Below are positions 5,870 through 52,370 of a stretch of 64,000 nt of DNA, one piece after another. How positions within the stretch are numbered: position 1 is the stretch's first letter; each line of letters starts with the position of its first letter. This DNA comes from an uncultured archaeon (lineage in GTDB: Archaea; Asgardarchaeota; Hermodarchaeia; Hermodarchaeales; Hermodarchaeaceae), in contig CAYFXC010000007.1 of NCBI GenBank assembly GCA_964347045.1, forward strand, positions 23,853 through 87,852, in the 5' to 3' direction. A program made the translations under genes and the position numbers. The notes below the pieces were generated by a model that ran no database searches, was not told the DNA's origin, and was given only the letters and a program-made list of their open reading frames with translations.

Positions 5870-5993
5870 TGGTAGCCCGGCGCGGATTCGAACCGCGGTC
5901 CCAAGGTTTCTCCACCATCTTGAATGTGGATCCAGAGCCTCGGATGATTGACCAAGGTGCATACCCCAAGTGAGCACTCTACACTACCGGGCT
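5870..5993 (-). tRNA. tRNA-Gln(CUG) with two introns: position 15/16 (5955-5978) and 37/38 (5908-5931); CCA encoded
   Basis: Acceptor AGCCCGG/CCGGGCT, T arm CGCGG-TTCGAAT-CCGCG, anticodon CTG at 5933-5935; removing the two 24-nt BHB-type inserts gives a canonical archaeal tRNA-Gln with A1:U72. Confidence 0.9.
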
Positions 5994-48230: not shown

Positions 48231-48539
48231 ATGTCAGAAATTTGTCCTATTTGCAGTTTGCCTAAAGATATTTGTCGCTGCCAAGAATTGGCGAAGACAG
48301 AGCAGCGAATAAAAGTAAGCGTCGAGAGACGAAAATGGGGACGGGAAGTTACTCTCATTGAGGGTATAAACAGCCGAGAAATTTCACTTTCCGAACTTGT
48401 CACTAAACTCAAGATGAGATGTGCATGCGGAGGTAGTGCAAAAGAAGGTGTCATTGTTTTGCAAGGAGATCACCGCCACAACATCAAGAACATTCTTAGT
48501 GATCTCGGATTCCCCTCCGATAACATCGACGTTGCTTAA
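48231..48539 (+). CDS. sui1: Translation initiation factor aIF1 (SUI1)
   Basis: CPICSLP..C.C, RKWGREVT.IEG, LK..CACGG, LQGDH. Confidence 0.95.
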   Translation: MSEICPICSLPKDICRCQELAKTEQRIKVSVERRKWGREVTLIEGINSREISLSELVTKLKMRCACGGSAKEGVIVLQGDHRHNIKNILSDLGFPSDNIDVA

Positions 48540-48636: not shown

Positions 48637-48649
48637 GGAAAGCTTTTTG
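48637..48649 (+). promoter_or_regulatory. BRE/TATA-like promoter of tRNA-His
   Basis: GGAAAGCTTTTTG matches the GAAA-n-TTT(A/T) elements upstream of other genes in the window (e.g. near 23446, 26946, 48170). Confidence 0.4.
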
Positions 48650-48691
48650 TGGGAGGGCTTGGTTCAACATTTCTTCGTGCCGGGGCACCGT

Positions 48692-48846
48692 GCCGGGATT
48701 ATGTTGGTAAGTATTTACCAGCTCCCGAAGGTGTAAACTGGTAATTACCCAGGCGCAATGGTAGCATTGAAGCCTGTGGAACCCTATCCTCATGGATAGG
48801 ATGCTGAGAGCTTTAGGTCGGGGTTCGAATCCCTGTCCCGGCACCA
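48692..48846 (+). tRNA. tRNA-His(GUG) with three introns: 8/9 (48700-48729), 15/16 (48737-48758), 37/38 (48780-48808); A73, CCA encoded, no encoded G-1
   Basis: Acceptor GCCGGGA/TCCCGGC; T arm CGGGG-TTCGAAT-CCCTG; anticodon GTG at 48776-48778; the spliced product is a complete cloverleaf with an A15:U48 pair; lies immediately upstream of hisS. Confidence 0.85.
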
Positions 48847-48861
48847 TTTTTCACTATCAAC

Positions 48862-50397
48862 ATGAATAATAGAGAGAAGTACGAACATGAGTTGATGAAA
48901 ATGAAACGCGGAAAAGATCTAGCCGTTGGTGGATTTCGAGATTTCTACCCTGAACTTTATCAACGAATTGATAGAATACTTCAAGCCTTCCGTGAGACTC
49001 CTAAATTGTTTGGTTATATCGAATATGAGTGCCCAACAGTTGAACCACTAGAACTATATCAGTTGAAATCCGGACCATCACTCGTTGAAGAAACTTTCAA
49101 AGTCACAGATCGCAAAGACCGGCAGCTTGTATTGCGTCCAGAAACAACACCCTCTCTTGCTAGGATGCTTGCCGCCCAACAGCAGTATTATCCACGCCCA
49201 ATACGGTGGTTTTCAATTTCGCGCGTATTTCGAGATGAAACCCAACAACGAGGGCGCGTTAAGGAATTTTGGCAATTGAATGTCGATATTTTAGGCACCG
49301 AAGATGTCGCCGCTGATGCCGAAGTTATCAACGTGCTCGCAGCAATCATTCTAAGCCTTGACTTCACACCAAAAGATTTCGTTATTCGGATCAATGACCG
49401 GCGCTTAATCCAAAGTTTCATCGAATCATTGAAACTTACCAATTACACAGAGATTATACGAGTCTTAGACCGGCGCGAAAAACTCTTACAAGAATCCATT
49501 GTTGACCGGCTCACAAAAATCGGTACCCCAGCAAAAAAAGCGGACCAAATTGCCCTCAAACTTCGTCATTTCTATATTGGAAAACAAAAAGCCGAACCAA
49601 AACTTCCAGCTTCTAAAGAAATTACAGAATTGAAAAAAAGTCTTCCACAACTTCAACGTCAGGCACTTATCAATGCACTTCGAAAAACGGGTATTACTCA
49701 ACAGGCAGCAGAACGACTCACTGATTTTTCTGCAATTCGAGGAACACCAAAAGATTTCCTTAAGGCCATGGATGACATAAAACTTGACAAATCAACTCAA
49801 CGAACCTTAGGCCCTCTTAGGCAACTCGCTATGCAATTGAATGACTTAGGAATAACAGATGTCTGTGAATTTGATGCAGGAATAGCCCGGGGGCTTGATT
49901 ATTACACGGGCATCGTCTTTGAAGCTTGGGACCGCCGTACGGGATTACCTCGAGCAATTGCAGGAGGAGGTCGCTATGATGATCTTGTCGGCATTTTTGA
50001 AGGACAACGACTGCCAGGGACTGGATTCGGTTTTGGTGAGACTGTAATTTTGGAACTTGCTGAAGAAATGAACTTGCTTCCACCCCCAGAACCACCCGCT
50101 GAAATCTATTTAGCTCCGGTCTCAAAGAAACAACTAAGCAGTTGTCGAGAAGTCGCCTCACTCCTCCGAGCAGCGGGAATAAGGACACTTTTCAATGGTT
50201 TTTCATGGTCACTAACCAAACATCTTGAGGATGCCAGTAAACGTCAGATCCCATTTGTTGCTATCATTGGACCTCAAGAACTTGCCAAAAAGGTCGCTAA
50301 TGTCCGTGATATGAAGACTGGTAAAGAGCAGTCAGTTAAGATCACAAAATTAGCAGATTTCATTCAAGAAAAGCTTCAAAAAAGAACCAAATCTTGA
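48862..50397 (+). CDS. hisS: Histidyl-tRNA synthetase
   Basis: GFRDF.P, LRPETTP, RGLDYYTG, GGGRYDDL, anticodon-binding C-domain; start may be a little further downstream. Confidence 0.96.
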   Translation: MNNREKYEHELMKMKRGKDLAVGGFRDFYPELYQRIDRILQAFRETPKLFGYIEYECPTVEPLELYQLKSGPSLVEETFKVTDRKDRQLVLRPETTPSLARMLAAQQQYYPRPIRWFSISRVFRDETQQRGRVKEFWQLNVDILGTEDVAADAEVINVLAAIILSLDFTPKDFVIRINDRRLIQSFIESLKLTNYTEIIRVLDRREKLLQESIVDRLTKIGTPAKKADQIALKLRHFYIGKQKAEPKLPASKEITELKKSLPQLQRQALINALRKTGITQQAAERLTDFSAIRGTPKDFLKAMDDIKLDKSTQRTLGPLRQLAMQLNDLGITDVCEFDAGIARGLDYYTGIVFEAWDRRTGLPRAIAGGGRYDDLVGIFEGQRLPGTGFGFGETVILELAEEMNLLPPPEPPAEIYLAPVSKKQLSSCREVASLLRAAGIRTLFNGFSWSLTKHLEDASKRQIPFVAIIGPQELAKKVANVRDMKTGKEQSVKITKLADFIQEKLQKRTKS

Positions 50398-50428: not shown

Positions 50429-51016
50429 TTGATAAATAGAAGTGCTTTAATAGTCGTAGGATATTTTATCCTACAAATACGTTTAGGGCGATTAACTCTG
50501 AAAAAACAGGCTATTTATGGAGTCCTTCTTCTTTCGCTGATTTTCCTCATAACCAACACCACAACGGCCAACACTTCATCTAGTAGCTTTGAAACCTATG
50601 AATGGGTTGCTTCAAATCTAGAGCAAACCATCGATTATGGTAACTCAACACAAACTGTATTTTCAAACCTAAGTGGAATAACTGCCTTTGATATTCTTAA
50701 CCAAACTACATTAGTAACCTTCATTCAATTTGCATATGGCAAATTCATCCAATCAATAAATGGTGTTGAAAACAACGCCGATAACAACGGGTACTATTGG
50801 CAATACTGGGTGAACGATTACCTCGCTCCCGTTGCTGCCGATAATTATGTCCTCTCTGATGGTGATCATGTATTATGGAAATATTGTGCGCCTGAACACA
50901 CCACAACACCATCACCCACTATTAATCCGGAGCTCATTGTAGTTTTCGGAATAATTGGAGCTATAGGGGTAATCGTCCTCATCGCATCAATTTGGGCTTA
51001 TATCAAACTGCGGTGA
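50429..51016 (+). CDS. DUF4430 (transcobalamin-like C-terminal domain) surface protein with C-terminal TM
   Basis: YGKFIQSINGV, YWQYWVN, VAADNYVLSDGD; signal-like N-terminus; start uncertain. Confidence 0.8.
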   Translation: MINRSALIVVGYFILQIRLGRLTLKKQAIYGVLLLSLIFLITNTTTANTSSSSFETYEWVASNLEQTIDYGNSTQTVFSNLSGITAFDILNQTTLVTFIQFAYGKFIQSINGVENNADNNGYYWQYWVNDYLAPVAADNYVLSDGDHVLWKYCAPEHTTTPSPTINPELIVVFGIIGAIGVIVLIASIWAYIKLR

Positions 51017-51024
51017 CCTAAGAA

Positions 51025-51747
51025 TTGCGAATAAAATCAATCGTAGTATTAAGTTGCATTTTACTCTTGTCAACAGTCCTGCTTAGCGCTCAACCAACAA
51101 CGGCCCAATCCCAAGCATACGCTCATGGATTACAACCGGATGCTTTTACTTCACCAAAACTTCATTGGTTAATAACAAATGTTACAAATGAAGTTGTGGA
51201 ATTCGGGTTTGGTTCAGGTACATATTGGAAGACCCGAGCAGGCCAAGAAATTACCTTTGAAATTCATAAAATCGAGAATAATGAACTCCATGGATTTCTT
51301 ACTATCGGTAATCTTACAGTTCCAGCTAATGATTCGCGTATCGCTTCTGAACTTGTATTTAGCATCTGGCCCTGGTTCCCGGGGTTAGTCTCGCATCTTG
51401 AATGGGATACTGTTGATCAAGCTGCGATCAATGCAGCATCGAGTTTCTTCATGAATGGGAGCTTAGAAATTCTAACAACTACCACAACGAGAGCGTATGT
51501 TTACCACCAAGGTCCCTGGGGAAACCAGAACACTACCTTGATTTATGATTTGAGCACTGGAATTTTACTAGCAGGCTACACAGAGTTCTTCTTCTTAAAT
51601 GATTACCACTTAGGCATTGAATTTGTTATGCCTACAAGGAGCTCGACAAATCTGACAACTTTGCTGTTTTTTGCGACATTTGTAATCACCCTAATCATTG
51701 TTGCGTTAAGTGTCATCATTGCACGTCGAACACCCCAATGGAATTGA
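51025..51747 (+). CDS. Secreted/surface protein with C-terminal TM anchor
   Basis: Signal peptide, YDLSTGILL motif, terminal hydrophobic helix followed by RR. Confidence 0.7.
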   Translation: MRIKSIVVLSCILLLSTVLLSAQPTTAQSQAYAHGLQPDAFTSPKLHWLITNVTNEVVEFGFGSGTYWKTRAGQEITFEIHKIENNELHGFLTIGNLTVPANDSRIASELVFSIWPWFPGLVSHLEWDTVDQAAINAASSFFMNGSLEILTTTTTRAYVYHQGPWGNQNTTLIYDLSTGILLAGYTEFFFLNDYHLGIEFVMPTRSSTNLTTLLFFATFVITLIIVALSVIIARRTPQWN

Positions 51748-52370
51748 TTACCGTGAATGGTACTGGAAGAAAGTTGTCCACCCCTAAAAGTCCAGTAGCA
51801 ACCCGAGTTGCACTCATTGCAATATTCGCAGCCTTGGCTATCGGAGGAAATTATGCTCTTTTCGCACTTCCAAACGTTGAACTCTCATCAGTCATGGTAT
51901 TTCTGAGCGGATTTCTTTTTGGTCCAATTATTGGAGCCCTCGTAGGTTTCATTGCCATGGTCATCTATCAATTATGGAATCCCTGGGGGGCTTTTATCCC
52001 TCCTATTGGATTGGCAGTAATTGGATGCACTATTTTCATTGGAATTGTGGGAGGAATCGTGGGAAAAGCCCTACAGCGACTCGATTATCCGGATATTCGA
52101 TGGTTTTGGATACCAGCAATGTTCGGTCTACTTTTGACTCTCTTTTTTGATTTGGTAACTACTCTTGCTTATAGCCTTACTTTCAGCATACCATTCATCG
52201 TATCTTTCATTATGGGATTACCCTTTACGCTGATTCACATAGCCAGTAATGCCATCCTTTTTGGATTAATCACCCAACCAGTGACACAAGCAGTGCATCA
52301 GTTACAGCTAAGCCAGGCTCAACTCCGTATACAAACATTGAAGATTAAAAAAGGAGAGCTTATTGTGTGA
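51738..52370 (+). CDS. ECF transporter S component (CbrT-like, possibly cobalamin)
   Basis: IAIFAAL, LPNVE, NPWG, IHIASN; next to a DUF4430 gene. Confidence 0.78.
   Translation: MELITVNGTGRKLSTPKSPVATRVALIAIFAALAIGGNYALFALPNVELSSVMVFLSGFLFGPIIGALVGFIAMVIYQLWNPWGAFIPPIGLAVIGCTIFIGIVGGIVGKALQRLDYPDIRWFWIPAMFGLLLTLFFDLVTTLAYSLTFSIPFIVSFIMGLPFTLIHIASNAILFGLITQPVTQAVHQLQLSQAQLRIQTLKIKKGELIV

Follow-up and report, generated by a model that had tools for sequence, protein, structure and literature searches.

A tRNA-His gene with A73 and no encoded G-1 beside a long histidyl-tRNA synthetase in Hermodarchaeia: a candidate G-1-independent pair

The locus described here lies in a window of 64,000 nucleotides, the whole stretch of DNA that was analysed, from the MAG of an uncultured member of the Hermodarchaeia (G000), and it is composed of a tRNA-His(GUG) gene interrupted by three introns (48692-48846, + strand) and, directly downstream, of hisS, the gene for the histidyl-tRNA synthetase (HisRS). 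Once spliced, the tRNA is a 74-mer, called tRNA-His(GTG) by ARAGORN, that folds as a normal cloverleaf and has a variable loop of 4 nt. The features of the locus are as follows.

48640-48649, + strand: TATA/BRE-like element AAGCTTTTTG, read from sequence, upstream of the tRNA-His gene
48676-48685, + strand: second copy of the acceptor 5' strand, CGTGCCGGGG, in the leader, 13 nt ahead of the genuine one
48692-48699, + strand: tRNA-His exon 1, nt 1-8, GCCGGGAT
48700-48729, + strand: tRNA-His intron 1, 30 nt, between nt 8 and 9, BHB-like
48730-48736, + strand: tRNA-His exon 2, nt 9-15, GGTGTAA, 7 nt, kept in all relatives
48737-48758, + strand: tRNA-His intron 2, 22 nt, between nt 15 and 16, canonical BHB
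48759-48779, + strand: tRNA-His exon 3, nt 16-37, anticodon GTG included
48780-48808, + strand: tRNA-His intron 3, 29 nt, at the canonical 37/38 position, BHB
48809-48846, + strand: tRNA-His exon 4, nt 38-76, with A73 at 48843 and encoded CCA at 48844-48846, then TTTTT
48862-50397, + strand: hisS, encoding P0001, 511 aa from the first ATG, the single HisRS gene detected in the assembly
49228-49269, + strand: motif-2 loop FRDETQQRGRVKEF, residues 123-136 (F123-F136) of P0001
49399-49851, + strand: enlarged all-helical insertion domain, about residues 180-330, AlphaFold pLDDT about 85-95

The neighbours of the locus are a SUI1/aIF1 gene upstream (48231-48539) and, downstream (50429-52370), genes for a DUF4430 protein, a 240-aa ORF and the S component of an ECF transporter.

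Neither ARAGORN in the default mode nor Rfam at the gathering threshold reported a tRNA anywhere in the window, and tRNA-His escaped both because its gene is split by three introns. Its 3' end is visible within 48660-48870 as a T arm and TCCCGGC-A-CCA followed by TTTTT, with the complementary GCCGGGA about 150 nt upstream. Introns are present in many tRNAs of this genome, one example being a tRNA-Leu(CAA) with a 43-nt intron (5870-5993, - strand), recovered by ARAGORN in the intron mode only and missed by the default scan and by Rfam. In tRNA-His, introns 2 and 3 cleanly form the archaeal BHB structure, in which a 4-bp helix is flanked by two 3-nt bulges, and from species to species this central helix shows compensatory or wobble changes. 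Intron 2 has a GUGU/GCGC central helix, AAA and AAU bulges and a CUGG/CCAG inner hairpin, and its relatives carry GCGC or GCAC opposite GUGU, with a hairpin loop variable in length and sequence; in intron 3, the strand opposite C32-U35 (CUGU) is GCTG, GCGG, GCAG, ACGG or ACAG in relatives, and the intron is absent in genus g2. The central helix of intron 1 is formed by acceptor nt 3-6 (CGGG) with CCCG, the bulges are present and the outer helix is weak; its hairpin varies across species in sequence and in length (30-32 nt) between fixed flanks, and two g2 loci (L013 and L015) lack this intron, reading uninterrupted GCCGGGAT-GGTGTAA. A model with two introns, one of them a single 52-nt intron in the D arm, also produced a cloverleaf, but it failed in the relatives, GGTGTAA being exonic in the genus g2 loci, and was abandoned in favor of three introns. 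The D arm reads GGTGTAATGGTAGCAT, versus GGTGTAATGGTAACAT in family f6, and the tRNA body is like that of canonical Asgard tRNA-His, a resemblance suggesting that the identity set was changed in place, and that the tRNA was not imported.

The near-universal G-1 of tRNA-His counts among the most conserved identity marks of tRNAs. In the gene described here, position +1 is 48692, preceded by T at -1 (48691) and G at -2 (48690); no G-1 is encoded, the discriminator is A73 and the acceptor stem has the pair G1:C72. The GUG cloverleaf of a canonical tRNA-His is thus found here, and an encoded G-1 paired with C73 is not. A reading of this DNA from sequence alone (the sequence-only reading) had singled out U-1 and A73, and both are borne out; they are not there by chance, as A73 and a base other than G at -1 recur in all 15 Hermodarchaeia loci with a readable 5' end, the base being T in 14 of them and A in one. 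The same reading described the tRNA and the synthetase as encoded together as one locus. This holds for the Hermodarchaeia, in which tRNA-His is found directly upstream of hisS in 16 loci; however, adjacency is not diagnostic, since Anaerolineae and Woesearchaeota show it too, and their tRNAs are canonical, with G-1:C73. The arrangement is a recurrent one (loci L055-L088), the tRNA being located about 35-80 nt downstream of hisS in many Anaerolineae and upstream of it in Woesearchaeota/Nanoarchaeota, in all cases with G-1:C73.

The product of hisS is a class IIa HisRS, matching PF13393 at 5.7e-50 (catalytic core) and PF03129 at 4e-17 (HGTP anticodon-binding), with the HisRS of Thermoplasma acidophilum and of trypanosomes as the best solved matches, and with HisRS only among the top PDB and Foldseek matches. 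The first ATG is located 15 nt past the tRNA CCA, an ATAATA-like element at this place (48866-48871) is conserved in relatives, and the database homologues are 494-496 aa in length; translation probably begins at M12 or M14 (48895 or 48901), at the head of a leaderless transcript made from a promoter of hisS itself. In the complex of the Thermus thermophilus enzyme, G-1 is bound through its alpha-phosphate by R115 and R122 and recognized as a base by the R115 main-chain nitrogen; R7 touches the C68 backbone as well as the beta- and gamma-phosphates carried by the triphosphate form of the transcript, and the insertion domain clamps nt 72-76 (PMC4357726). In the alignment of P0001 to this enzyme, R115 corresponds to T127, P116 to Q128, Q117 to Q129, R120 to R132 and R122 to K134, with E126 and G131 also kept, while the equivalent of R7 is G23; of the 144 HisRS sequences outside the clade described below, 109 have K or R there. 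The set of basic residues for the G-1 5' phosphate (R7, R115, R122) is thus represented in P0001 by G23, T127 and K134. As R115, P116 and R122 are R116, P117 and R123 in the Escherichia coli numbering, the alignment confirms the T, Q and K that the sequence-only reading had assigned to these positions, and the loop ends exactly at 49269, as it had proposed. The pattern ET[Q/L]QRGRVKE is conserved in 17 of 17 Hermodarchaeia loci.

That the altered loop alone marks the loss of G-1 reading, as was also implied, is too simple a view. While the changes are real, the Heimdall families f13 and f4, with HisRS of the same clade, have near-canonical loops (ETPQKGR[LV]RE), different from the canonical ones solely by T at the R116 position, itself variable (R, E, N, A, K) in canonical archaeal HisRS, and yet their tRNA-His has A73 and no G-1. 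Judged from these alignments, the loop changes are not decisive, because relatives with near-canonical loops carry the same type of tRNA; P117 and R123 were therefore lost in a later refinement in Hermodarchaeia and f27, not in the switch itself. Family f4 also retains K at the R7 position, and by these comparisons the G-1 phosphate pocket is not uniformly dismantled in the clade. The features shared clade-wide are T127 and the enlarged insertion domain; Q129 (the Q118 position) is invariant in 30 clade members. P0001 is about 70 aa longer than usual, and the AlphaFold model places the extra length in the helical insertion domain, while the HisRS homologues outside the clade are 410-450 aa long and align in two stretches. 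Pfam returned only sub-threshold matches for this domain, and Foldseek with the whole model returned only HisRS.

Across the Asgard families, the following states of tRNA-His have been found.

Families f2, f5, f6, f9, f16, f19 and f21: encoded G-1 with C73
Family f15 (G056): T-1 with C73, accompanied by a Thg1-family gene at a distance of 8 kb (the classical alternative of archaea)
Families f1 (Hermodarchaeia), f4 and f13: A73 with T or A at -1; family f27 (3' half only): A73

Canonical G-1:C73 tRNA-His is present in more than 25 other Asgard genomes. Family f4 is represented by seven genomes, two of them closed (G042 and G084), with A73, T or A at -1 and AT-rich leaders, and family f13 by a single genome (G067), with A-1 and a 12-nt intron. 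In these f4 genomes (L186-L195), tRNA-His and tRNA-Glu share the acceptor stem and the discriminator (GCCCCGA...TCGGGGC-A-CCA), so that telling the two apart at the acceptor end must depend on some other feature. In f27, only the 3' half of tRNA-His is recognized, about 3.2 kb from hisS (G123:C94, L206), comprising the anticodon arm, the T arm and TCTCTGC-A-CCA, and no matching GCAGAGA 5' strand was found in about 170 nt upstream; the tRNA may be split, or it may carry a very long intron. In G056, the Thg1-family gene and the C73/T-1 tRNA-His are located at C1:153867-154244 and 161785-161855, a loose linkage. A long HisRS of about 500 aa is found in f1, f4, f13, f27 and f25, in the last of which no tRNA-His was found. 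A phylogeny of HisRS, advised by the sequence-only reading, was built with FastTree, and in it the long Hermodarchaeia and Heimdall enzymes form a single clade (SH-like support 99), with the Hermodarchaeia as a sister to f27 within it; as this is a single-method tree of 173 sequences with composition warnings, it is used for clade membership and not for deep order. The G-1:C73 families, where examined, have HisRS of another type, one example being f21, which belongs to the same class as f4 but has a different HisRS, with the loop FRDGP[VI]KKGRYREF, and a canonical G-1:C73 tRNA. Thus the type of HisRS and the type of tRNA-His go together at the family level; as the A73 families are related, this association amounts to few independent events.

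The acceptor 5' strand with a CGT prefix, CGTGCCGGG, occurs twice within 48676-48697, at a distance of 13 nt. Genus g1 and L014 have the upstream copy, L013 and L015 do not, and its position is where the real exon 1 sits in the genus g2 genomes without the duplication. In the MFE fold of the precursor, the leader copy pairs with the 3' acceptor strand, and the intron 1 BHB occupies the real bases 3-6. The TATA/BRE-like element is the likely promoter of tRNA-His, and its GGAAAGCTTTTTGTG block recurs upstream of the tRNA in the genus g2 relatives. RNase P cuts G-1:C73 precursors one position early, and the archaeal RNase P RNA is present in G000 (177 bits). The same early cut could be envisioned here, with U-1:A73 and G-2:C74 extending the helix, U-1 being retained and HisRS reading its 5' phosphate, and GT does precede +1 in 13 of the 15 Hermodarchaeia loci, which could pair with A73 and C74 to give a 9-bp helix; recognition of position -1 by HisRS is, besides, largely through the phosphate (PMC4357726). 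We consider this quite unlikely, however, as the remaining two loci have AA (L012) and AT (L014) at -2/-1, and as the -1 base of the f4 and f13 tRNAs, which are served by HisRS of this same clade, is T or A within an AT-rich leader, and A-1 cannot pair with A73. The CGT of the Hermodarchaeia also travels with the duplicated leader block and the promoter-proximal copy, and its conservation may reflect a constraint on the leader or the start site, and two of the three phosphate-holding residues of HisRS are lost. With the base at -1 varying between T and A across the tRNAs of the HisRS clade, no encoded extra nucleotide looks selected.

The completeness of G000 is 88.9%, and that of the family f1 MAGs is 72-91%. 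A canonical G-1:C73 tRNA-His, perhaps along with a second HisRS or a TLP, could in principle be encoded in the unassembled part of about 11%, tRNAs often being missed in MAGs, and the gene described here would then be accessory or decaying. A second, canonical tRNA-His, which would speak against the sequence-only reading, was not found in G000 by ARAGORN with introns, by BLAST with the mature sequence or by BLAST with canonical Asgard tRNA-His, and PF13393 matches a single gene in this genome. The best G000 match of the tRNA-His covariance model R1 (64.8 bits) falls on a tRNA-Arg, canonical tRNA-His in other Asgards scoring 66-85 bits. This model performed better than BLAST with a Hermodarchaeia tRNA fragment across the phylum, which mostly returned other tRNAs, and the relaxed mode of ARAGORN (-ps90) was discarded as noise, with 548 'tRNAs' with huge introns. 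A gap in the assembly appears highly improbable as the explanation, since at least 16 Hermodarchaeia genomes have this one pair as well, an A73 tRNA-His is present in both closed f4 genomes, in one of which (G042) no canonical tRNA-His is found among the 27 matches of model R1 at E <= 0.05, and conservation, with compensatory changes, extends over the tRNA, its BHB helices and hisS alike.

Another possibility is that G-1, or another nucleotide, is added opposite A73 after transcription, by an enzyme other than Thg1/TLP, with HisRS still dependent on position -1 as in eukaryotes. We know of no enzyme family besides Thg1/TLP that adds G-1. The eukaryote-like addition of G-1 suggested by the sequence-only reading, along with a genome search for Thg1/TLP, has found no support: PF04446 is absent from G000 and the 18 additional Hermodarchaeia genomes (0/19) and from the 62 Heimdall-class genomes (0/62), and the Thg1C domain PF14413 from the 19 Hermodarchaeia genomes (0/19), while PF04446 did have matches in the Methanosarcina control and in 14 Asgard genomes besides these. 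Each absence from a MAG is probabilistic, but the 81 combined are strong, even as a highly divergent or unrelated G-1-adding enzyme could escape HMM searches. In favor of an addition are the A73 itself, which is the eukaryotic discriminator opposite which Thg1 adds G-1, and the retention of Q129, R132 and the basic K134 in the Hermodarchaeia loop, along with the near-canonical Heimdall loops; on the other hand, TLPs of the archaeal type depend on C73, and opposite A73 the nucleotide that they add is U (PMC3245924). On balance we rate such an addition as unlikely.

The explanation we prefer, and hold to be moderately probable, is a G-1-independent HisRS/tRNA-His pair, akin to those of Trypanosoma, Acanthamoeba or Caulobacter but of separate origin. 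A G-1-independent HisRS was the other option of the sequence-only reading; it fits all of the data, as a deduction from wholly computational evidence rather than a demonstrated property. The tRNA would be transcribed with a short leader, the three BHB introns would be excised by the archaeal splicing endonuclease, and RNase P would most likely trim at +1, so that the mature tRNA would start at G1 and have a normal acceptor stem of 7 bp, with G1:C72 and followed by A73 and CCA. Its charging without a -1 nucleotide would fall to the single HisRS, of a clade confined to Hermodarchaeia and several Heimdall-class families; the GUG anticodon, A73 and the acceptor end are presumably what this enzyme reads, and the enlarged helical insertion domain may contribute, considering that its T. 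thermophilus counterpart clamps the acceptor end. The two partners probably recognize each other via a rewired rule not yet described for archaea. Weighing against this reading are the retained Q129 and R132, a K134 that might yet contact a phosphate, and, in the Heimdall members of the clade, the near-canonical loops and the K of f4 at the R7 position.

The finding is a real and coherent one, of which this window is not the only example. To our knowledge, the exceptions to G-1 have been one alphaproteobacterial clade and scattered protists, and an A73 tRNA-His has hitherto been regarded as an invention of eukaryotes. No papers on Asgard tRNA-His, Thg1 or HisRS were found in the literature searched. 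If true, the proposed pair would be an archaeal exception to G-1, of separate origin, that is shared by a whole group of lineages within the Asgards and goes with a single clade of HisRS, and it would present a natural third experiment on the rewiring of HisRS, as well as a candidate orthogonal HisRS/tRNA pair. It also places an A73 tRNA-His inside the archaeal group nearest to eukaryotes. A73 without G-1 might even be an ancient state in the Heimdall/Hermod part of the Asgards, and the one that the archaeal ancestor of eukaryotes had, but this must be considered a long shot.

Compared to the known systems, the Hermodarchaeia tRNA-His is like that of the eukaryotic cytosol, where G-1 is added by Thg1, in having A73 and no encoded G-1, but no Thg1 was found, and the human HARS matches P0001 only at 3e-34 and only over the C-terminal part. 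Some eukaryote-like sequences, one of them an MMETSP transcript, have FET[TV][QT]RGRKREH loops (FETTQRGRKREH); these sit in another clade and are not sister to the Hermodarchaeia enzymes in the FastTree phylogeny, and the resemblance is thus read as convergent. With the archaeal system of C73 and TLP (as in G056, f15), the pair shares an archaeal host and the lack of an encoded G-1, but has A73 without a TLP. The alphaproteobacterial RCS/RRCH clade, exemplified by Caulobacter crescentus, has a G-1-less tRNA-His and a divergent HisRS (Wang, 2007; Yuan, 2011, PMC3064791), which relies on G118 and a non-Watson-Crick 1:72 pair (PMC4338351). The Hermodarchaeia pair is similar in having A73, no encoded G-1, a co-varying, divergent, long HisRS and no Thg1, but it has Q129 instead of Gly at the Q118 position, and the Watson-Crick G1:C72. 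The HisRS with RPG loops form a clade separate from the Hermod/Heimdall clade, and a shared origin of the inserts, found at the same site, was considered and dismissed, the sequences being not alignable and without detectable homology. In Trypanosoma brucei and Acanthamoeba castellanii, a HisRS that is independent of G-1 goes together with A73 and with the lack of both G-1 and Thg1 (Rao et al., 2013, 2015; PMC3561963, PMC4338351). The Hermodarchaeia resemble these two in A73, the Watson-Crick G1:C72, no encoded G-1 and no Thg1 found, and resemble the trypanosomes in a motif-2 loop without the R-P of RPQ, which reads RYEAITRGRRREH in T. brucei and T. cruzi; the trypanosomal HisRS is also the second-best solved match of P0001 (3e-58), and it appears in Foldseek as well. 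They differ, however, in the lineage of HisRS, with Q118 kept, R123 replaced by K and an insertion domain about 70 aa larger, in the archaeal host, and in the three introns of tRNA-His.
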